DNA of 64,000 nucleotides, from NCBI GenBank assembly GCA_963720465.1, contig OY970393.1, positions 1,376,001 to 1,440,000 of the forward strand, written 5' to 3'. Position numbers and translations under genes: made by a program. The DNA comes from Methanobacteriota archaeon. Lineage in GTDB: Archaea > Halobacteriota > Bog-38 > Methanoflorentales > Methanoflorentaceae. Position 1 is the first letter of the stretch. Each line of letters opens with the position of its first letter. This document shows, in pieces, positions 18,554 to 39,213 of the stretch. Under the pieces are notes generated by a model. It worked only from the letters and a program-made list of their open reading frames with translations. It was not told where the DNA came from and made no database searches.

Positions 18554-18863
18554 TGTCTGGTTGCACTCGACATGATTTTGATATAATGCTACAGATGATA
18601 ACAATTCTTGTAAAGAACCTAGCATATATGTATTCCAACGCACGAGTACCTTTTTACGATTTAAGCGGACGTGAGTCGAAGGCCAGCCAACATCCTCACC
18701 GTGGCGATGACGGTAATCAGTGTGACAGGCAACTGCACAACCTCCGCGTAAGCCTATGGCTCCTCGACTTACGGTGCACAACGAAGAGGCGAGAGAACAG
18801 GGGCAACTTGCACGCGTTATTGCAGCGGGCGGCTGGTCAACGGCATAAATGAGGGCACAAACG

Positions 18864-29336: not shown

Positions 29337-30086
29337 ATGAGTTATAGCAAACGGTTCCCTAGAGTCATTATGGACTATGATGGCGGCGAGCGTCCGGATT
29401 ACGATGACGTAGCTGTTGAGGACAGCCTCACCCTGTTTGTTAACGACATCAGGATCGCGACGCTCATTGCGTCGCCAGAACAGCTCAAAGAACTTTGCAT
29501 CGGATACTTGATCTCTGAGGGCGTCGTCTCAAGTTTTGAAGAGATTCAAAGCATTGACGTCGATGATGATAAGAACGAAGCCTCCATCGTTGTCTCGTCC
29601 TTCGATCAGGTCGAGCTCTGGCAGGAAGTGCGCTCTTCAGGCTGCATCGGGATGAAATGGTGGACAAACGAAGACGTGCGCGTTGATTCTGCGGCTACGT
29701 TTGAAAAGGTGGTCCTCAAAAAGAGCTTGACGCACCTCGACACTCAAGCGCGCAGACAGACGCACGGCGTGCACGTCGCCGGGCTATTTGACGCGACGGG
29801 CAAGCTGCTAGCGCAAGCGGTCGACGTTGGAAGACACAGTGCTATCGATAAGGTCATTGGCATGTACGCGGGCAACGACTTCTCCTACACGTTCCTCCTG
29901 TCATCCGGCAGGCAGCCTGCAGGAATGGTATTGAAAGCGGCTCGGGCAGGCATACCATTGATCCTATCGAAAGCAGCACCTATTAGCACTGGTGTCGAGG
30001 CAGCAGTTCAAGCTGGGGTGACCCTCATATGTTTTGCTACTGGGCGTCAGTTTGCGACGTATTCACATCCAGAGAGGCTCGTTTAG
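29337..30086 (+). CDS. fdhD: formate dehydrogenase accessory sulfurtransferase
   Basis: SSGC, THGVH, DVGRHSAIDK, SGR and KAAP motifs. Confidence 0.9.
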   Translation: MSYSKRFPRVIMDYDGGERPDYDDVAVEDSLTLFVNDIRIATLIASPEQLKELCIGYLISEGVVSSFEEIQSIDVDDDKNEASIVVSSFDQVELWQEVRSSGCIGMKWWTNEDVRVDSAATFEKVVLKKSLTHLDTQARRQTHGVHVAGLFDATGKLLAQAVDVGRHSAIDKVIGMYAGNDFSYTFLLSSGRQPAGMVLKAARAGIPLILSKAAPISTGVEAAVQAGVTLICFATGRQFATYSHPERLV

Positions 30087-30347: not shown

Positions 30348-30971
30348 TCAGTTCGGAACCTCACGTTCGGACATAATCACAAATATGCCGACTTGAGACA
30401 ACAAGTTCTGAAAATGTCCTACCGTCTTGCCAGTCGCGCAGCTTTTCAAACCGATGAGCCGTTCTATGGCGATGTTTCGCGTTCGGCAAAACGCCTGGAA
30501 ATCGCTGATAGTGGAAAGGTGGATATTAGGCGTATCGTACCAGTCGCGGGGCAAAAAATCGACTTTCGGCATTTGTCCTTTGGTGAGGATGTACCATCGA
30601 ATTCTGAAGTAACCAAAATTTGGAAAGCTCACAATCGCCCTATTTCCTACGCGGAGCATTTCCTGAATAACAAGGGTCGGCTTATGAACGACTTGTAGCG
30701 TCTGATTTAACACGATGTAATCGAAAGATGCATCATTATAGTCGCCAAGCCCTTCGTCGATATCGCCTTGAAAGACCGTGAGCCCTTTGCGCACACAAGC
30801 GGCTATACATCGATCGTCGATTTCAACGCCGCGGATATCGGAGACACCGCTTCGTTTTAGCTTCGTCAGCAAGTCCCCGTTTCCGCAGCCGAGATCAAGT
30901 ACGCGTGCGCCACGGGGAATCAGATTAACAATGATATCCTGGTCAAATCGTTGCACCGCTACCGCCCGCAC
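30348..30971 (-). CDS. metW: methionine biosynthesis protein MetW
   Basis: VLDLGCGNG, VSFPNFG and WYDTPNIH motifs; downstream of metX. Confidence 0.92.
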   Translation of the reverse strand: MRAVAVQRFDQDIIVNLIPRGARVLDLGCGNGDLLTKLKRSGVSDIRGVEIDDRCIAACVRKGLTVFQGDIDEGLGDYNDASFDYIVLNQTLQVVHKPTLVIQEMLRVGNRAIVSFPNFGYFRIRWYILTKGQMPKVDFLPRDWYDTPNIHLSTISDFQAFCRTRNIAIERLIGLKSCATGKTVGHFQNLLSQVGIFVIMSEREVPN

Positions 30972-32047
30972 ACGTTATCGAGAAACCCTGACAGAAGTTC
31001 TGTTAGCGGCCCGACCTCAAGCAGGAATGCATCGTGGCCTCGCGATGACTGAACGTCGCAGTAGGTGACGTCTACGCGTTTCCTGCGGAATGATCTCACG
31101 AGCGCCTTCAATCGCGCAGAGGGGAATAGCCAGTCTGATGAAAATGAAATCACAAACATCTTTGACTTGATCGACGTCAGATCGGGCAGATCAAAATAGT
31201 CCATGGCTTTCGTTATGTAAAGATACGAGTTGGCATCGAAGCGCTCGACGAATCGGTTGCCCTTGTAGTGCAGGTAGCTCTCGACCTCGAAATCTTCTGA
31301 AAACTTGTAGCGATACCCATCCGCCCCTTTGAGCGCCCGCCCAAACTTTTCGTGCATCGACTCCTCACTGAGGTACGTGATGTGTCCTATCATCCGGGCG
31401 AGCGCAAGGCCTTTGCGCGGCGGCGTGCCGTCATAATAGTCGCCGTTCTGCCAGCACGGGTCTGCCATGATCGCTTGCCGGCCTACCTCGTTGAACGCTA
31501 TTCCTTGTGCGGAGAGTCGATTGGCCGCGGCGAGTATCACGGCGGATCGCACGATATCAGGATAATCAACGGCCCACTGCAGCGCCTGCATCCCCCCGAT
31601 GGATCCACCGACAACAGCCAGGAGGGTTTCAATTCCCAAGCCATCGATCAGGCACTTCTGCGCGCGGACCATGTCGCCGACCGTGATGACCGGAAAGCCA
31701 AGTCCGTAAGGACGTCCTGTCGCGGGATCGACACTGCCCGGCCCCGTTGACCCGCTGCACCCTCCAAGGATATTGCAACAGATGACAAAGTAGCGCTCTG
31801 TGTCGAGTGCCTTGCCTGGCCCAATAAAGTCATACCACCAGCCTTGCTCGCCCTTATCGTTTACAAAGCCGGCGTGAGCGCTGCCAGACAAGGCGTGCAG
31901 GAGCAATATTGCGTTATCTTTTGCAGCGTTCAGCTGGCCGTATGTTTCGTACGCGACCGTCACCGGCGAAAGCGTCCTTCCGCAGTCTAACTTAAGTGCA
32001 TCAAACGTGTAATGTTGAGTCCGCGGAACGGCGTCTACGACGTACAT
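30959..32047 (-). CDS. metX: homoserine O-acyltransferase (MetX family)
   Basis: HALSG, GGSIGGMQ, FDANSY and GHDAFL motifs. Confidence 0.95.
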   Translation of the reverse strand: MYVVDAVPRTQHYTFDALKLDCGRTLSPVTVAYETYGQLNAAKDNAILLLHALSGSAHAGFVNDKGEQGWWYDFIGPGKALDTERYFVICCNILGGCSGSTGPGSVDPATGRPYGLGFPVITVGDMVRAQKCLIDGLGIETLLAVVGGSIGGMQALQWAVDYPDIVRSAVILAAANRLSAQGIAFNEVGRQAIMADPCWQNGDYYDGTPPRKGLALARMIGHITYLSEESMHEKFGRALKGADGYRYKFSEDFEVESYLHYKGNRFVERFDANSYLYITKAMDYFDLPDLTSIKSKMFVISFSSDWLFPSARLKALVRSFRRKRVDVTYCDVQSSRGHDAFLLEVGPLTELLSGFLDNVCGR

Positions 32048-33306
32048 GCGAGTGCTTGGTCTATATCCTCAGTGATGTCAGCGACGTCTTCGATCCCCAC
32101 AGAAAGTCTGATGAAGTCGTCGCCGAGTCCTGCAGCAACGCGTTCTTCGGGGTTCATTTGTTGATGCGTGGTGCTTGCAGGGTGCACCACCAACGATTTC
32201 GCATCGCCGATATTGGCGAGGTGACTGAAGAGCTTGAGGCTCTCTATGAACGTCACGGCCGCGTCGTACCCACCCTTGACGCCGAATCCGACAAGCGCGC
32301 TCGCACCGTTTGGCAAGTACTTCTGCGCTAGTCGATGAGAACGATCGTTCTCTAGACCAGGGTACCGCACCCACGAGACGCGTTCGTGCTCATTCAAGAA
32401 TCGCGCCACAGCAAGCGCATTCGCGGAGTGACGTTCCATCCTGACGTGGAGTGATTCAAGTCCCTGAAGGGTCAGGAAGGCATTAAAGGGGCTCAAAGCT
32501 GGACCGATGTCGCGTAGCAGATGCACTCGCGCCTTCAGTATGTAAGCGAGTTCTCCGAACGCTTCAGCGTACACAAGCCCGTTGTAGGTTGGGTCAGGTG
32601 TGGTAAAATCGGGGAATTTTCCGTTCGTCCAGTCAAAGTTTCCCGCATCAACGATGAGCCCCCCGATAGAAGTGCCATGCCCACCCATGAACTTAGTGAG
32701 ACTATTGACGACGATATCCGCGCCGAAGTCGATTGGTCGGCACAGGATGGGCGTAGTTGCAGTGCCATCGACGATGAAGGGAACACCGCTGTCGTGCGCT
32801 ATGTGAGCGATGCTTTCGATATCGAGAACGTCCAAGGTCGGATTGCCGAGCGTTTCTCCAAAAAAGGCCTTCGTCTTATCATTGACGTACTCGTTGTAGT
32901 TGTTCGGATCAGTCGAGTCTATTAAGTGGACCTTGATGCCCATTCTTGCCAACGTCGATGAGAACAGGGTGTAGGTACCGCCGTACAGTTGCGATGATGC
33001 TATGATCTCATCTCCAGGCCTAGCGATGTTGAGGATTGAAAACGCGTTCGCGGCTTGACCGCTAGCAAGCGCCAGCCCGGCTTTACCGCCTTCCAGCAGG
33101 GCAACTCGCTGTTCGAGCACGTCATTCGTGGGGTTCATTATGCGCGTATAGATATTTCCCATCTCTTGGAGCCCAAAAAGTTTTGCAGCGTGCGCTGTGC
33201 TGTCGAATACGTACGAAGTCGTTTGATAGATCGGAACGGCCCTCGCTCTTGTTGTAGGATCGGCCGATTGCCCTCCGTGAACTGCTATCGTTCCAGGTCT
33301 TTGCAT
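32035..33306 (-). CDS. metY: O-acetylhomoserine sulfhydrylase
   Basis: PIYQTTSY, YTRIMNPT, SLTKFMGGHG and LANIGDAKSL motifs. Confidence 0.95.
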   Translation of the reverse strand: MQRPGTIAVHGGQSADPTTRARAVPIYQTTSYVFDSTAHAAKLFGLQEMGNIYTRIMNPTNDVLEQRVALLEGGKAGLALASGQAANAFSILNIARPGDEIIASSQLYGGTYTLFSSTLARMGIKVHLIDSTDPNNYNEYVNDKTKAFFGETLGNPTLDVLDIESIAHIAHDSGVPFIVDGTATTPILCRPIDFGADIVVNSLTKFMGGHGTSIGGLIVDAGNFDWTNGKFPDFTTPDPTYNGLVYAEAFGELAYILKARVHLLRDIGPALSPFNAFLTLQGLESLHVRMERHSANALAVARFLNEHERVSWVRYPGLENDRSHRLAQKYLPNGASALVGFGVKGGYDAAVTFIESLKLFSHLANIGDAKSLVVHPASTTHQQMNPEERVAAGLGDDFIRLSVGIEDVADITEDIDQALACTS

Positions 33307-33336
33307 GATACACCCCTTTAAACGGCAATTATTTTA

Positions 33337-33398
33337 TATAACAATTGTTATAATATAGTTATATAACAATTGTTATACCATATATACGAGCTGTTATA
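33337..33398. promoter_or_regulatory. tandem palindromic operators TATAACAATTGTTATA
   Basis: Perfect 16-bp palindromes at 33337-33352 and 33362-33377, with a degenerate copy at 33383-33398; between metY and a divergent HTH gene. Confidence 0.8.
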
Positions 33399-33487
33399 TT
33401 GAGCACTTGAGCATTAAGGTTTCGGAGAAGGCAAAAACGGTATACAGCAAGCCGTTTTATGTGAAGCTGATGTCCCATGAGCGACTC

Positions 33488-33811
33488 ATGAAAACGCAAC
33501 GATCGCCCTGTGAAACAGCGGTCTGGAGTATCCTCCCTACCATCCGTTGCGAGGTTTCAAAGGAGCTAGCAAAACTAGGTCTATCTCAAATGATGATTTC
33601 GGCGCGTCTCGGCGTCACGCAGCCAGCGGTCAGCCAATACGTAACGAGCAAAAGGGGGACAGCTGTTGCGGTCAGCGATGACGTAAGGACGCTCATTCAA
33701 TCGCTGGCTGAAGACGTTGCCGAGGGAAAAGAACTCAACTTGAACGAACGAATTTGTGCGATATGCACACATATCCAGGGCGACGAGAAGTGCACGGCCT
33801 TCAGTCGCTAG
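33488..33811 (+). CDS. archaeal HTH transcriptional regulator with conserved Cys
   Basis: PCE...LGVTQPAVSQYVTSKRG...ICAIC motifs. Confidence 0.85.
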   Translation: MKTQRSPCETAVWSILPTIRCEVSKELAKLGLSQMMISARLGVTQPAVSQYVTSKRGTAVAVSDDVRTLIQSLAEDVAEGKELNLNERICAICTHIQGDEKCTAFSR

Positions 33812-33813
33812 CC

Positions 33814-34707
33814 ATGAATAGCCACCTAAAACGCCTGAAAGAGGAAAACGACGCCGTCATTTTGGCGCACAACTACCAACGCGACGAAGTTCAAGACGCC
33901 GCCGACTATGTGGGCGACTCATTCGAGCTCTCAAAGATTGCGTCTGAGATCAAGTGTGCAGTCATCGTGTTCTGTGGGGTCGACTTCATGGCGGAAAACG
34001 CTGCTATCCTCTCACCCGACAAGCAGGTGCTGCTTCCCGTGAAGGAGGCGACGTGCCCGATGTCGCACATGATCACTCGAAACGACGTGCGACAACTCAA
34101 AAAGCGCTATCCGGGTACGCCCGTGGTGTGCTATGTGAACACTTCGGCCGCCGTCAAGGCAGAAAGCGACGTGTGTTGTACGTCGGCAAACGCCGTGAAG
34201 ATTATCAATGCGCTTGATGCGGATCGAATCGTGTTTATTCCCGACCGAAATCTCGGAGACTACCTCGCCACGAAAACCGACAAGGAGATCGTTTCCTGGA
34301 ACGGCTTCTGCCCGACCCACCAAGTGATCACCTTGGGAGATGTGTTGATCAAGCGCGAGGAGGTACCCGACTGCGAGATCGTCGTGCATCCTGAGTGCCG
34401 GCCAGAGGTCATAGCAGCAGCTGACTTTGTGTACGGGACCGGCGGCATGCTGCGTCACGCCGCAAAAACCAACGCACACCACATCGCCATTGGAACCGAA
34501 GTAGGCATGCTCCATCGACTCCGGAAGCAGGAACCAACGAAGGAGTTTTCCGCTCTCGCCGAAACAGTGTGCCCGAACATGAAACGCACACACCTTGAGG
34601 ATGCTGTCCGCGCGCTCGAGCAGAAGGAATTCCTTGTCACTGTGGCCAAGGATGTCCGCATTGGCGCAAAAAAGGCGCTCGACAAGATGCTTGAAATGGG
34701 AACCTGA
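33814..34707 (+). CDS. nadA: quinolinate synthase A
   Basis: LAHNYQ, CGVDFMAE, YVNTSA, HPEC and CPNMK motifs. Confidence 0.95.
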   Translation: MNSHLKRLKEENDAVILAHNYQRDEVQDAADYVGDSFELSKIASEIKCAVIVFCGVDFMAENAAILSPDKQVLLPVKEATCPMSHMITRNDVRQLKKRYPGTPVVCYVNTSAAVKAESDVCCTSANAVKIINALDADRIVFIPDRNLGDYLATKTDKEIVSWNGFCPTHQVITLGDVLIKREEVPDCEIVVHPECRPEVIAAADFVYGTGGMLRHAAKTNAHHIAIGTEVGMLHRLRKQEPTKEFSALAETVCPNMKRTHLEDAVRALEQKEFLVTVAKDVRIGAKKALDKMLEMGT

Positions 34708-34851
34708 GGTTCGGTACTGTCTGCTTCGTCAAGAACGAAAAGTGCGCTGACATTTTCGCCCATTGATTTTTTTAAGAATACCTAGTTTTCACGGTGCGCC
34801 GGGCGAACAAATTTTATATAACGTTAACGCCGTTAATTATTGGTGTTTGTC

Positions 34852-35107
34852 GTGAACGACGCTGTCACTGAGCTTACAAACAATGAACACCGTTCCAGAA
34901 AACTGAGAGAGTATCCCCTCAGTGCCAAACTAGTCTTCAGGACTCTTGAGCGAAACGGCACAATGACCATCAACGACATCGAAAAGCAGACTTATCTACC
35001 CCACAGAACGGTGAGATACGCGATCAAGCGGCTAAAAGAAGGCGGCATGGTGACTCAGCTCTTTTACATAAAGGACGCACGCCAAGCTCTACCGGCTAGC
35101 CGAATAG
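34852..35107 (+). CDS. small winged-helix regulator, paralog of 27222..27482, with indels near 35085
   Basis: Highly similar to the paralog; the LYRLAE* tail is recovered if two missing bases are restored; followed by a 12-bp tandem duplication GCTAGCCGAATA. Confidence 0.8.
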
Positions 35108-35255
35108 CTAGCCGAATAGCTCGCAGGCCCCGTGAGCAGATTCCACAAGAGACACATGCTGAGTTTGGTATCGCTCCCTCGACCGTGGGCCGGTGGTGGA
35201 AAACGCGCCGCACGCACTTTTTGAGCCTTCCTAGGCAATCCGCTCTGTCAATCTT

Positions 35256-35384
35256 TCAGGCTTTCTGTTCCAGGGCAGCTACGCGCTCGCCCATCGGGCC
35301 CTGACACGCCCTGAACTCTGCACAGCACTTCTCGAGCTCATCTATGCGCTTCTTTAACTCCTTTATTTCGCTTTCGTAATTCAT
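35256..35384 (-). CDS. 42-aa coiled-coil small protein
   Basis: MNYESEIKELKKRIDELEKCCAEFRACQGPMGERVAALEQKA with a strong RBS AGGAGGTGGT; below the ORF-track length cutoff. Confidence 0.6.
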   Translation of the reverse strand: MNYESEIKELKKRIDELEKCCAEFRACQGPMGERVAALEQKA

Positions 35385-35649: not shown

Positions 35650-36009
35650 TCAAGAGCAACAGCCTGCGTCAATCGCTGCTTCATTCTCGCGTTTGTCAAG
35701 CAGTGACTTAATCTTGTTACACACGTCGCAGAGGTGCACCGACAGGGCCCCGGGGTCGTCTTTGTATTCTTCAAGGTACTCGTCGATCACCTCGAGCACC
35801 TCGGTGTCCTGTCCCGCCGTTCCCCGTTTGCTCTTGACGTACTGATTGACGGCAGCAGGAGTAACGCCGAGTATTCGTGCGATCTGTGCCTGACTTATTC
35901 CTTCCTCCTTCATCCGCACCGCCATCTCGGCCCGAATCACGGGAAGGACGTACTGCACAATGATCTCACATCGCGGCCTGATCTTCGACGACCTTTCGGT
36001 TTCAGTCAT
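35650..36009 (-). CDS. archaeal HTH regulator, paralog of 33488..33811
   Basis: RCE...LGVTPAAVNQYVKSKRG...LCDVC motifs; starts 2 bp after the pscS stop. Confidence 0.85.
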   Translation of the reverse strand: MTETERSSKIRPRCEIIVQYVLPVIRAEMAVRMKEEGISQAQIARILGVTPAAVNQYVKSKRGTAGQDTEVLEVIDEYLEEYKDDPGALSVHLCDVCNKIKSLLDKRENEAAIDAGCCS

Positions 36010-36011
36010 AG

Positions 36012-37196
36012 CTACAGGAGATCATATTTCTCGGCTATCTCCTTAAAGACATCTGCCACGTACGATGTCTGGTCCCACGTTAAGCCGTATGTGTTGAGCT
36101 TCCACGTGCGCGTCGCTCCCGCAAACTCGCCAACGACGCCCCTCTGTTTCAGCTCGTCGCTGAAGAAGAACCCTCGTCGCTTGTGGGTTGTGGCGATCGT
36201 GTCGAAACTGCGCGTGGTATCCACCTTCGTCAAGGTGTGCTTGCGCGGGTGTTCACTTAAACATTTGTTGCCCTTAACGTCAAGGATCGCGTCGATGACG
36301 ATGTTCGACTTCGCCACGTACTCCTGCCAGTCATTGATGCGTCTCTGGATGGTCGGGAAGGAGGCCATCATGGCGAGGAGGTTCGCTCCCATGAGCGTGC
36401 AGCCGAGCATTTCAACCTCTTTGATGCCAAACTTGCGTCCTGTGACGTCGCCGATCATCTGCGTCGTGCGGAGGACTTGATCAGCATACTCGCTCGTCGT
36501 TGCCAGCACGCCGCTGGGCGCAGGAGATGCCATCGACTTGTGCCCGCTGCCGACCACGAAATCGACGCCGAGCGCTTTGCCGTCGACCGGCTTGATGCCG
36601 ACGGTGTACGCGCCGTTATAGAGGATCGGGACGTCATACTGGTGCGCGGCCTTCGCGGCTCCTGCGATATCGTGCTCGTTTGCAAACGAGTAGTCGAAGT
36701 GGTCGTGCATCACGAGGACAGGCTTTTTACCGTGTTCACGCCTCACGTCCTCAATCTTCTGCGCGACGGCGTCGCCCGTGACGACGTTATCCTTGTTTAG
36801 GGGAACCTCTTTGACCACGGCCCGCGCGTTTTCAACCGCCACGAACTCGGTATAGTGCGCTAGGGCGGACACAAGAACGATATCACCTTTCTCCGCGAGT
36901 GAGAGGCAGACGGCCTGGAAGGCGCGACGTGCCCCCGGCGTGACGCGCGCTTCGTCCATGTTAAGGAATTTAGCGAGATCGCTGTGGAACTCAGCGATGG
37001 GCGGCTTGGTGATCTTATCGAGACGGAACGGCTTGCGGCACTGGTCGCACGCGAGTAGCCATCGCCGTAGGCGATGAGGGCTTTCATCGAGTCTGCGGTG
37101 AGGCGGCCTGCCGCTTGGATTGGATGAATGTTCACGTAAGTTCACTCATGCTTCAACCTCAAAGGTCGTCGTGTGTGACGTACCATTCTCTGTCAT
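36012..37196 (-). CDS. pscS: Sep-tRNA:Cys-tRNA synthase (SepCysS); 5' region has about three single-base deletions
   Basis: NIHPIQAAGRLT, GDGYS-CDQC, GSGHKSMA (PLP Lys), EMLGCT and RGFF motifs; N-terminal motifs are spread over different frames. Confidence 0.92.
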
Positions 37197-37396
37197 CTGT
37201 CCTCTGTGGAAGACAATTCCTCTTACGTTTAGTACGGTACGCCTGCTATTGAACGTTCATAAAAGGACAAAATATGCCTACAACTGCATGCTGATTATCA
37301 CGGAGGCAAATAAAGTATGTACGGACAGATTGACCATGTACGAGATTTGCTGCAGGTGTCGATTGATCGACGTAACTGAAACTGGGGGAATGCACT

Positions 37397-37909
37397 ATTC
37401 GACTTCTTCTAATCCACGCGGATAAAATCAGCTACACGGCAACGCAACGAACCAAAGTAGCCGAGGACATAGAATCGAAAGAGGACGGCATGGAAGACTG
37501 TCTTGTCGTTTTCTCGAGCGTAGAAAAGCTCGATGAGCTCAACGCCACAGGTGTAGCTGATGCGGCAAAGAACAGCATCGTTGATGTGCTGGGCAAGCTC
37601 AAAGAAAATCGCGTCATGCTCTTCCCGTTTGCGCATCTTACGAGCACCTTAAGCTCTCCCCAAGTAGCCTTGGAGATACTCCAGTCGCTTGAGGCTTCGC
37701 TGAAGAACGACGGGTTCACCGTGAAGCGGGCACCATTTGGGTGGAACAAGGAATTCGACATCAAGAGTAAGGGACACCCGTTAGCGGTCCTTTCTAAGGT
37801 GATCTGCCCGTATGGCAAGGTGGAGTGCGATTTCCTATGCCCCTACTGCACGAATCCGATAAAGATTCAGGACCTTAGCAGCCTGCGTGAGACACCTCCC
37901 ACGTCGTAG
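37397..37909 (+). CDS. stand-alone archaeal ThrRS editing domain (Ser-tRNA(Thr) hydrolase-like) with Cys-rich tail
   Basis: (I)RLLLIHAD, FPFAHL, RAPFGWNKEF and KGHPLA motifs; the reading frame extends 31 codons upstream of the ORF-track ATG. Confidence 0.85.
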   Translation: MRLLLIHADKISYTATQRTKVAEDIESKEDGMEDCLVVFSSVEKLDELNATGVADAAKNSIVDVLGKLKENRVMLFPFAHLTSTLSSPQVALEILQSLEASLKNDGFTVKRAPFGWNKEFDIKSKGHPLAVLSKVICPYGKVECDFLCPYCTNPIKIQDLSSLRETPPTS

Positions 37910-38036
37910 CTGACTGAGGGCGAGGAACGCCGCCAATACGTTCTGATCAAGAACTCACAAACGATAAATAAAAAAAGGCCAAGCGCGTGCAATAGTGTAT
38001 TCACGCTCGACAGGCGCACGCGAGGCGAGGAGTTGC

Positions 38037-38483
38037 ATGTATAGCGATAAAGTGATGCTGCATTTCATGAACCCGCACAACATGGGGGAGATCGAGAACC
38101 CGAGCGGTGTGGGTGTGGTCGGTAACCCGGTGTGCGGGGACCTCATGCAGATCCAGATCAGGGTGGAAGACGGGATTCTCACTGACGTCAAATTCAAGAC
38201 GTTCGGCTGCGGGGCGGCCATAGCGACGAGCAGCATGGTAACGGATCTGGCGATCGGAAAGACGATTGAGGAGGCGTTGAAGATAACGCGAAACGACGTC
38301 GCTGAGAACCTGGAAGGGTTGCCTCCGGTGAAGATGCACTGCTCGAACCTGGCGGCCGATGCCCTGCACGCGGCGATTGAGGATTACCTGAAGAAAGAGG
38401 GACGCGGCGAGTGGTTCGACAGTAAGAGCACAAAGAAGAAGAGTGGAACAAAAAAGGGTGCGCGTCGGCGGCGGGCCGCCTAA
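38037..38483 (+). CDS. iscU: Fe-S cluster scaffold IscU/NifU
   Basis: HFMNPHN, NPVCGD, FGCGAAIA and PPVKMHCS motifs. Confidence 0.95.
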   Translation: MYSDKVMLHFMNPHNMGEIENPSGVGVVGNPVCGDLMQIQIRVEDGILTDVKFKTFGCGAAIATSSMVTDLAIGKTIEEALKITRNDVAENLEGLPPVKMHCSNLAADALHAAIEDYLKKEGRGEWFDSKSTKKKSGTKKGARRRRAA

Positions 38484-38685: not shown

Positions 38686-39213
38686 CTACGCCTGTGCGAA
38701 GATAGTAGCAGCACTGATATTGGGATATTCCCAAGTACCGACTACAGCACCGTTACTATTCACTAAAACTACTGTAGGATAGCCACTCACGGTCACCCCA
38801 AGTTGTTGGGCAACGGCCGCATTTGTGCTAACAACTGGTGTAAATCCGGGCTGCGCTGCAAGCTGAGCGTAGTCGGAGGTTTGTGAAAATGCCTGGCAGT
38901 AAGGACAACCCTCTTCGTAGAAGTAGTAAATCTTGTAACCAGAGGGCAAACCTGAACCAGAGGCAGTGGGCGTTGCGGTTGGCGTGGGCGTTGCGGTTGG
39001 CGTGGGCGTTGCGGTTGGCGTGGGCGTTGCGGTTGGCGTGGGCGTTGCGGTTGGCGTGGGCGTTGCGGTTGCTGACGCGGTAGCGGCTTGAGATGATGAA
39101 TTTGCAGCAGCAGACGCATTCGGTGACGACGTGGTCGAACTAGTGCATCCTGCTGCGGCCACACAAAGAAGAAGTGCGGCACATATCGCTATCATTGCTG
39201 CTTGTTTTTTCAT
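38686..39213 (-). CDS. thioredoxin-like lipoprotein, copy 1
   Basis: Signal peptide with AAGC lipobox, S/T/P linker, CPYC motif and YPT cis-Pro motif. Confidence 0.85.
   Translation of the reverse strand: MKKQAAMIAICAALLLCVAAAGCTSSTTSSPNASAAANSSSQAATASATATPTPTATPTPTATPTPTATPTPTATPTPTATPTASGSGLPSGYKIYYFYEEGCPYCQAFSQTSDYAQLAAQPGFTPVVSTNAAVAQQLGVTVSGYPTVVLVNSNGAVVGTWEYPNISAATIFAQA
38966..39071. repeat. 18-bp coding tandem repeat (TATPTP), about 6 copies
   Basis: GTGGGCGTTGCGGTTGGC repeated about 5.9 times; about 3 copies in the paralog near 40913-40965. Confidence 0.95.

Follow-up and report, generated by a model that had tools for sequence, protein, structure and literature searches.

In the 64,000-nt stretch of a Methanoflorentaceae genome analysed here (contig OY970393.1, positions 1,376,001 to 1,440,000; hereafter the window), two perfect copies of a 16-bp palindrome lie between metY, encoding homocysteine synthase, and the divergent gene of a small helix-turn-helix (HTH) protein with conserved cysteines, HTH1. 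Comparison of this arrangement across archaeal orders makes it likely that the palindromes are operators of an autoregulated repressor, belonging to a family that we designate Cys3-HTH, which would control sulfur-assimilation genes; in this genome these would be the metY-metX-metW cassette (metYXW) and HTH1-nadA. The features on which the argument turns are listed below.

33337..33352, no strand: O1, putative operator, TATAACAATTGTTATA (core TAACAATTGTTA), 31-46 nt upstream of the metY ATG
33362..33377, no strand: O2, putative operator, second perfect copy of TATAACAATTGTTATA, overlapping the TATA-like TTATATAA (minus strand) expected for the metY promoter
33383..33398, no strand: degenerate copy TATACGAGCTGTTATA, 12/16 match to TATAACAATTGTTATA, kept in the closest relatives only
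32035..33306, minus strand: metY, O-acetylhomoserine sulfhydrylase / homocysteine synthase, ATG at 33306
33488..33811, plus strand: HTH1, 107-aa Cys3-HTH protein with C8, C90-x-x-C93 and C102, HTH core at about residues 27-56
33814..34707, plus strand: nadA, quinolinate synthase, co-oriented with HTH1 and beginning 2 nt past its stop

Paired palindromes between metY and HTH1

The perfect palindrome TATAACAATTGTTATA occurs twice, at 33337-33352 and 33362-33377; the two starts are 25 bp apart, which leaves 9 bp between the copies. The window holds three matches to it with at most three mismatches, compared with a mean of 0.08 in dinucleotide shuffles, none of 100 of which reached three. Throughout the genome (2,313,764 bp in one contig), the pair in the window are the sole copies at zero or one mismatch; the next-best match has two mismatches, is single and lies within an open reading frame (ORF), and the nine matches with three mismatches are also mostly within ORFs. 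The 12-bp core TAACAATTGTTA is found genome-wide at O1 and O2 only. Coordinates, shuffles and genome scan therefore agree with an earlier note on this DNA, which had described two perfect 16-bp palindromes 25 bp apart upstream of metY, facing a divergent small HTH gene with PCE and CxxC cysteines. The HTH gene was confirmed, with its conserved start placed at ATG 33488 (MKTQRSPCE...) because upstream ATG/TTG codons are mutated or separated by stops in relatives. The degenerate third copy described in the same note also exists, as TATACGAGCTGTTATA, but is weak on its own, since 73 genome sites reach four or fewer mismatches; it could be a half-site.

The 8-bp operator centre ACAATTGT is under-represented in this genome elsewhere than in the operator, with 17 occurrences against about 35 expected from length alone. 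No other occurrence genome-wide is flanked by TAAC...GTTA, and one further 12-bp palindrome centred on ACAATTGT, with other flanks, lies within an ORF. Three sites with one mismatch to the core (genome positions 940640, 1212701 and 1429971) are intergenic, with no recognisable sulfur gene adjoining. The ortholog of an NMT1-type binding protein, a gene that carries the site in other genomes (see below), has no upstream site at two or fewer mismatches here. Because the operator is present at one intergenic region only, this genome shows no wider regulon, and the simplest account is that a single control region, shared by metYXW and HTH1-nadA, is all that remains of the regulon.

Retention of the putative operator among close relatives

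A protein search was used to compare 41 genomes, 33 of which contain the HTH family. The divergent arrangement of metY and HTH1-nadA is retained in 16 loci from two genera (g1 and g2) of the window's family, across which HTH1 identity drops to 53% and metY identity to about 75%. All 16 of the intergenic regions carry at least one copy of the 16-mer at no more than one mismatch, within diverging flanks, so that the motif is conserved before metY orthologs, a point on which the earlier proposal depended. Loci of genus g1 have one near-invariant palindrome with a second copy or half-copy 14-25 bp away. Those of genus g2 have two copies 69 bp apart, one by each gene, both perfect in three of the four loci; in the fourth (L019), the metY-proximal copy has one mismatch.

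At this threshold the 16-mer was detected in 19 of the 41 genomes (that of the window and 18 of 23 others), all from the window's family, and in none of 17 genomes from other families. The five window-family genomes lacking a match are 59-88% complete, and a reversed-pattern control matched three of the 41 genomes, once each. Matches are confined to the metY/HTH1 locus in nearly every genome. Additional sites comprise one with a single mismatch in two g2 species, located before genes for an NMT1-type ABC binding protein and permease and just downstream of a SepRS-like gene; a perfect site before a MazE/AbrB-like small gene in G009; and two single-mismatch sites in G022 with uninformative neighbours.

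Two genomes of the family, G003 and G007, have fdhD instead of metY at this position, and the palindrome still precedes HTH1-nadA. The operator thus travels with the HTH gene, since these genomes keep it before HTH1 without metY.

The putative operator in other orders

To look beyond the family, we used 80 loci around relatives of HTH1, representing the best matches to an HTH1-centred profile; at least 520 of 603 candidate stretches encoded a relative. Sixty-four loci with at least 100 bp upstream of the HTH gene were analysed, with 15 window-family loci left out; they include Methanothrix, Methanosarcinales/ANME-2 (anaerobic methanotrophic archaea), Methanocellales and others. The 200-bp upstream windows (12.7 kb) contain 20 TAACN4GTTA sites at 19 loci, or 1.57 per kb, and the remaining 454 kb of the same loci contain nine, or 0.020 per kb, several of these being further copies of the 12-mer ahead of another gene at that locus, as at L108 before the ThrRS editing-domain gene described below. 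Allowing a variable spacer (TAAC-N3-5-GTTA), an upstream site was present at 20 of 64 loci exactly and at 44 of 64 with at most one mismatch, compared with 0 and 52, respectively, of 603 random 200-bp control windows from the same loci. The operator usually lies 28-50 nt before the start codon. In Methanothrix it typically reads TAAC(A/G)ATTGT(G/A)A, and both ANME-2/Methanosarcinales and Methanocellales typically have TAACAATTGTTA. HTH1 itself also has the operator near its own start, with the two perfect sites 111-151 nt upstream of its ATG.

Ten loci come from other families of the phylum. Two of these members are encoded in operons behind iscU, and six of the remaining eight loci have a TAAC- or TCAC-type site. 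Members with the recognition region TQxAVSQY pair with TAAC...GTTA sites, and those with APSAVSQY...RGYRI pair with TCAC...GTGA sites, a fourth case (L137) having TTCACGGCGTGAA; this covariation is suggestive only, because few independent lineages contribute. Together, these distributions support the view that the palindrome behaves as an operator of the HTH family.

Genes near the HTH gene were assigned by BLAST against a small reference set using crude ORF calls, HTH loci lost in filtering being uncounted, and 48 neighbours were further covered by NCBIfam scans. Within two genes on either side, the 80 loci contain 30 LarE-like genes and 27 cysteine desulfurase genes, together with nine nadA, seven metX and six metY genes. 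The operon in Methanothrix and Methanosarcinales runs from HTH (preceded in some cases by CysE-SufT) through LarE (TIGR00268), a SufS-type desulfurase and FdhD to an NcsA/TtuA-like protein, and that in Methanocellales from HTH through a SufS-type protein and FdhD to NadA, with LarE and an SmsB fragment upstream. At ANME-2-like loci, YcaO/TfuA/MoaD genes (McrA-glycine thioamidation) are divergent from the HTH gene; neighbours at other loci are a radical-SAM gene, SepCysS or NifS, and two loci (L029 and L030) have iscS-iscU-HTH operons. An assignment of the operon partners to NAD synthesis (NadX, NadC, NadE) was rejected, as NCBIfam names them FdhD, NcsA-like and LarE.

Genome-wide, a 3.3-Mb Methanotrichaceae genome (G041) has eight exact core sites, against about 0.2 expected and none in the control. 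They precede two class-V aminotransferase (cysteine desulfurase-type) genes and the gene of an NMT1-type binding protein, which has two of them; others stand near CysE-SufT, near an ABC permease and in the interval separating MetX-CBS from the HTH gene. A 0.9-Mb Methanocellales metagenome-assembled genome (MAG; G043) has four, one of them before the gene for a thioredoxin-fold protein. Taken with the g2 sites, those of G041 indicate that the NMT1-type transporter and met genes recur as targets in two distant clades. The data thus support an assignment of the family's neighbours and operator-bearing promoters mostly to sulfur assimilation and transfer, met genes included, in several orders. The earlier proposal that the HTH family controls methionine and cysteine supply is partly supported by predicted operators and sulfur-gene context in these other genomes, but in the window's own genome the operator is confined to one intergenic region.

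In a Methanocellaceae MAG (L108:4813-6671), TAACAATTGTTA precedes a gene for a ThrRS editing domain, followed by nifS. A homolog of this gene in the window (37490-37909) encodes a stand-alone ThrRS editing-domain protein beside iscU, which suggests a link between this protein and iron-sulfur (Fe-S) or sulfur genes.

The Cys3-HTH protein family

A profile search of 1.84 billion representatives returned 2845 proteins at E ≤ 1e-3 and 1425 at E ≤ 1e-10. The family was defined from a 20-member alignment (A1) by an N-terminal Cys (C-E/Q) ahead of helix 1, an HTH with ...AVSQY..KRG and a C-terminal CxxC; C8, P17, Y51, R56, G57, C90 and C93 are invariant (20/20). Both HTH1 and its paralog HTH2 (described below) show this pattern. 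Cysteines were checked in 144 of the best 147 representatives, namely those shorter than 200 aa: C8, C90 and C93 are present in 142, 130 and 128, respectively, the gaps falling mostly in truncated sequences. Glu directly follows C8 in 126 of the 144, and at least 67 have an aligned fourth Cys.

The Atlas clusters of the family are nearly all archaeal, and the ESM Atlas label reads only "putative transcriptional regulator". A search of the full-text literature, subscription journals and supplements aside, turned up no description of the family or the motif. From these searches the family appears to be large, archaeal and unnamed.

The AlphaFold2 (AF2) model of HTH1 has five helices with a mean pLDDT of 84, and the layout of the family comprises a long N-terminal helix starting with the invariant Cys and two extra C-terminal helices bearing the CxxC. 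A Foldseek search of the PDB with this model gave no significant match (best E 0.87), and a wide VIA-align search reached a best Z of 5.0 with unrelated helical proteins. A profile search of the PDB (52 sequences at E ≤ 1) yielded generic HTH matches and no solved relative, and Pfam and NCBIfam recognised the generic HTH core only, with no dedicated family. Prediction of a two-copy homodimer (A1) scored 0.02 against a mark of 0.42, which speaks neither for nor against binding. Two proteins, P0029 and P0030, are tandem forms with two complete Cys3-HTH units per chain, an arrangement that would fit recognition of a whole palindrome by one such protein.

Promoter geometry

RNA data were available from peat metatranscriptomes, 18 runs of which hold about one-fifth to one-third of the sampled words of 32900-34300. 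Contigs of four runs, from a source strain about 96% identical, were examined. In run X4, an RNA contig covering metY stops at 33333 and continues into adapter-like letters; in run X5, a contig starts at about 33447, preceded by adapter-like letters, and another in X4 starts at 33464. If 33333 is the 5' end of metY RNA, the putative leader of 27 nt would include the GGGGTG ribosome-binding site; O1 would be placed at about -4 to -19, and O2 would cover the TATA-like TTATATAA and the B recognition element (BRE) position of the metY promoter. Such a placement is the classic archaeal repression geometry, and metY is the likely main target of both operators. On the HTH1 side, a further conserved element was found.

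33413..33437, plus strand: 25-nt element ATTAAGGTTTCGGAGAAGGCAAAAA, conserved across g1 and recognisable in g2

Since it would occupy about -33 to -9 of a putative 5' end (~33446), ATTAAGGTTTCGGAGAAGGCAAAAA probably serves as core promoter for HTH1-nadA, albeit with an unusual TATA-like part. Genus g2 has its HTH-proximal operator downstream of the ATTAAGGTTTCGGAGAAGGCAAAAA equivalent, and in other genomes TATA-like boxes are often a few nucleotides upstream of the operator.

Remaining genes of the locus and the HTH2 paralog

Further features of the window are as follows.

30959..32047, minus strand: metX-like homoserine O-acetyltransferase (alpha/beta hydrolase), overlapping the metY end
30348..30971, minus strand: metW, last gene of the apparent metY-metX-metW operon
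29337..30086, plus strand: fdhD, sulfurtransferase, flanking the met cassette; within the HTH-led operon in other clades
34840-35304: MarR/TrmB-like ORF between nadA and HTH2, 130 nt downstream of nadA
35650..36009, minus strand: HTH2, 119-aa paralog, 37% identical to HTH1 (E 2e-16), with the three Cys plus a C-terminal CC
36012..37135, minus strand: SepCysS copy with a 1-nt frameshift near 37051 and a 206-bp 5' deletion relative to three relatives
37995..38483, plus strand: IscU/NifU-type scaffold gene, directly after nadA in several relatives
18597-18612: weak GATAACAATTCTTGTA site with three mismatches, about 45-60 nt before a LarE-like gene and divergent from a HypE/ThiL-like gene

The tightest partner of HTH1 is nadA. 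In three g1 species the two genes are fused in frame as 405-aa HTH1-NadA ORFs (L013:1507-2721, L014:1504-2718 and L016:1504-2718), predicted to form a natural fusion of a repressor with an Fe-S enzyme. The IscU/NifU-type gene shares the sulfur/Fe-S neighbourhood of HTH1-nadA, and the MarR/TrmB-like ORF is a possible second regulator of the cluster. The GATAACAATTCTTGTA site was not counted as an operator; it is not conserved in G003.

The metX-metW block (30348-32047) belongs to a met cassette that is missing at this position in G003 and G007, and for this reason the cassette may be mobile or laterally acquired and placed under operator control. The metX-metW pairing is typical of bacteria. 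The product of another ORF (38686-39213, minus strand) combines a CPYC motif and a long (TPTPTA)n repeat with an N-terminus resembling a signal peptide/lipobox, and is possibly an exported thioredoxin-like protein.

The earlier note had also placed a paralog with the same cysteine pattern 2 bp after the SepCysS gene. Spacing and pattern hold for HTH2, which begins 2 nt past the stop of the SepCysS ORF, but this SepCysS copy looks degraded. The 206 bp missing from it (region 36012-37489) correspond to a 62-aa upstream ORF and the first 13 codons, and the copy is probably decaying. In another species of the genus (L064) the window-type copy is mostly lost. An intact SepCysS with the small ORF is encoded elsewhere in the genome (G000:C1:1771064-1772400), with no HTH gene beside it. 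No TAAC-type site that could serve as an HTH2 operator was found upstream of either SepCysS copy; unrelated short inverted repeats are present there (TGAACGTTCA at 37250, GTCGAT-TG-ATCGAC at 37358 and AACGAGCTCGTT at G000:1771000), and the relatives are too alike in this region for footprinting. The genome encodes McrA and a SepRS homolog, and the CysRS model found no match in it above its cut-off, which together indicate a methane-metabolising archaeon relying on the SepRS/SepCysS route.

Discussion

The comparisons above establish computationally the conservation of the operator, its association with the HTH gene family, the content of the regulon and the invariance of the cysteines; from them we infer that the protein binds the operator, that it dimerises, that it represses instead of activating, and what it senses. 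In the proposed mechanism, HTH1, presumably dimeric, would bind the 12-bp core TAACAATTGTTA. With O2 over the TATA/BRE region and O1 between TATA and the start, metY-metX-metW would be repressed through blockage of TBP/TFB or of RNA polymerase. Lying upstream of the HTH1-nadA promoter, O1 and O2 would probably also tune HTH1-nadA, and across the family the same operator would control the regulator's own operon and other sulfur-mobilisation genes. The sensing site would consist of the three invariant Cys, possibly with the Glu next to C8 or the fourth Cys, and we favour, as a guess, an Fe-S cluster or a site reactive towards sulfide/persulfide; the repressor would then stay on DNA while sulfur or Fe-S supply suffices and come off when it runs short. 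Sensors of this kind are preferred because of the conserved Cys-Glu and of a gene context with desulfurases, Fe-S scaffolds, Fe-S-dependent sulfur transferases and NadA, itself a [4Fe-4S] enzyme.

Several observations weigh against this proposal. RNA contigs of runs X1 and X3, two of the four examined, bridge the intergenic region, and the contig ends at 33333 and ~33447 are weak hints of 5' ends, coming from single runs and a related strain. Autoregulation is less clear here than control of metY, since O1 and O2 lie about 70-110 nt upstream of the putative HTH1 start. Among the distant loci, 20 of 64 have no site at one or fewer mismatches, and two of five further genomes have no exact core site; the locus counts are, moreover, not independent, because many of the 80 loci belong to related Methanothrix MAGs. 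The reference set left 125 neighbouring ORFs unassigned, and some family members are surrounded by unrelated genes: L103 has a pyrophosphatase and LeuA nearby, L136 PCNA, TFB and DnaJ, and L137 Trm5b and a PAS protein. A fourth Cys is present in some members only, and with no cofactor-bearing relative found, the Fe-S idea draws on cysteine pattern and gene context.

In the main alternative reading of the cysteines, the operator-regulator pair is the same, but the cysteines hold a structural zinc and the protein responds to a metabolite, to a partner protein or to nothing. Zinc is commonly bound by a CxxC together with one or two distant Cys, the identity of the fourth ligand varies, and the HTH1-NadA fusion in three species suits an enzyme-linked signal, so that O-acetylhomoserine, SAM, quinolinate, NAD or a partner such as NadA might be the effector. 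However, the context in many clades is one of sulfur-transfer and Fe-S genes rather than a single pathway with an obvious effector, and the 107 residues of HTH1 include no recognisable ligand-binding domain; we regard this reading as rather unlikely. It is somewhat less probable still that HTH1 primarily regulates nadA and Fe-S enzyme supply, the metY cassette having landed beside a pre-existing autoregulatory site. The HTH1-nadA linkage, kept in both genera and fused in three species, would fit such a history, as would the operator without metY in G003 and G007 and the Methanocellales order of HTH, SufS, FdhD and NadA. Yet O1 and O2 lie over the metY promoter region and not the HTH1 promoter, in the distant Methanotrichaceae genome operators lie between the HTH gene and a divergent MetX-CBS, and in most clades the operon has no nadA.

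The palindromes might instead be bound by another factor, either a global regulator or the MarR-like ORF at 34840-35304, which lies 130 nt downstream of nadA, with the HTH genes as bystanders. We consider this very unlikely, since the motif tracks the Cys3-HTH gene across orders while all other neighbours change, and the covariation of recognition region and half-site, though no more than suggestive, points the same way. In a last reading, the palindromes would be not protein operators but RNA hairpins in a long metY leader, or AT-rich promoter (TATA) sequence. A TATA is present within the arms, and contigs of two RNA runs span the whole intergenic region, but the palindrome is invariant including its C and G positions, with no compensatory changes, and would form a weak 6-bp AU-rich stem. 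Rfam gave no match at gathering score on 33200-33600 (best 22.3 against 48 bits, an unrelated snoRNA), and in other genomes a separate TATA box adjoins the site, leaving hairpin or promoter sequence scarcely credible.

Regulation of sulfur assimilation and Fe-S supply in methanogens and their relatives is largely uncharted; the full-text literature covered by our search describes the enzymes and names no regulator of them. The autoregulated Cys3-HTH repressor proposed here would supply a candidate regulator family (at least 1425 representative clusters), a defined 12-bp operator and a predicted regulon, which together make the question directly testable in any tractable member. Regulon prediction would become possible in uncultured peat methanogens and ANME archaea, and the natural HTH::NadA fusion would offer a ready-made case of an enzyme-linked repressor. 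More speculatively, the family could be an ancient archaeal counterpart of IscR/SufR, in which a cluster bound by the N-terminal Cys and the CxxC reads Fe-S or sulfide status through one operator, TAACAATTGTTA, across methanogens and ANME archaea; this is a possibility that we hold doubtful. If true, the TAACAATTGTTA regulon would join cysteine desulfurases, LarE/NcsA/FdhD-type transferases, McrA thioamidation, Cys/Met synthesis and uptake of sulfur compounds, and the HTH::NadA fusion would tether an Fe-S enzyme to the factor controlling its own supply.

Several known regulators invite comparison. IscR, a small bacterial Rrf2 protein, is a repressor that also regulates its own gene, which is clustered with those for cysteine desulfurase and scaffold; it has three Cys and one non-Cys ligand, acts through palindromic operators placed over promoters, and signals Fe-S sufficiency. 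The proposed Cys3-HTH system resembles it in its small, autoregulated repressor with three Cys, in palindromes over promoters and in the desulfurase/scaffold context, and differs in being archaeal, in having an XRE/HTH_3-like HTH and in the split of the cysteines between the N-terminus and a C-terminal CxxC. For the 20 members at E ≤ 0.01, the listed 25 of 36 Pfam families include no Rrf2 domain, and HTH1 and HTH2 gave no match to it either. SufR of cyanobacteria and actinobacteria is likewise an Fe-S repressor and autoregulator of a sulfur-mobilisation operon, as the title of the paper cited for the cyanobacterial case indicates, but its size and Cys spacing are unlike those of HTH1, and the SufR model gave no NCBIfam match to HTH1 or HTH2 at E ≤ 0.1.

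Among archaeal proteins, Cys3-HTH is reminiscent of SurR from Thermococcales in its proposed control of sulfur genes, its CxxC and its GTT/AAC palindrome. SurR is a sulfur-responsive regulator with a redox-active N-terminal CxxC that binds a short palindrome of GTT/AAC triplets; it is larger, with two winged-helix domains, and responds to elemental sulfur, whereas the Cys3-HTH half-sites are arranged AAC-N4-GTT. SurR was not among the 52 PDB sequences (E ≤ 1) or the listed fold matches, an absence that leaves a relationship possible. The clustering of desulfurase, small HTH repressor and nadA recalls nifS-niaR/nadBCA of Bacillus subtilis, where these genes share one divergent control region and NiaR senses niacin through its 3H domain; unlike NiaR, the Cys3-HTH members have no detected 3H domain, and most are not beside nad genes.

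The only detectable similarity of the family is to XRE/Cro-type repressors, in the HTH core at about residues 27-56. HTH_3 (PF01381) matches 15 of the 20 members at E ≤ 0.01, with 18.7-19.2 bits for HTH1 and 25.0 bits for HTH2 (Pfam gathering score 23 bits), and structural matches to XRE, Cro, C.AhdI and TrpR-like proteins have insignificant scores. Neither the model of Tfx (TIGR00721; cut-off 60.25 bits, HTH2 13.1 bits, HTH1 no match) nor that of the MqsA-type CxxCG-HTH antitoxin (TIGR03830; cut-off 61.8 bits, 13.1 and 16.6 bits for the HTH part only) gave a score above its curated cut-off. The long Cys-starting N-terminal helix and the two extra CxxC-bearing C-terminal helices set Cys3-HTH apart from XRE/Cro proteins. 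Domain and profile searches did not place it with IscR, SufR, SurR or CymR, although it would work as they do.

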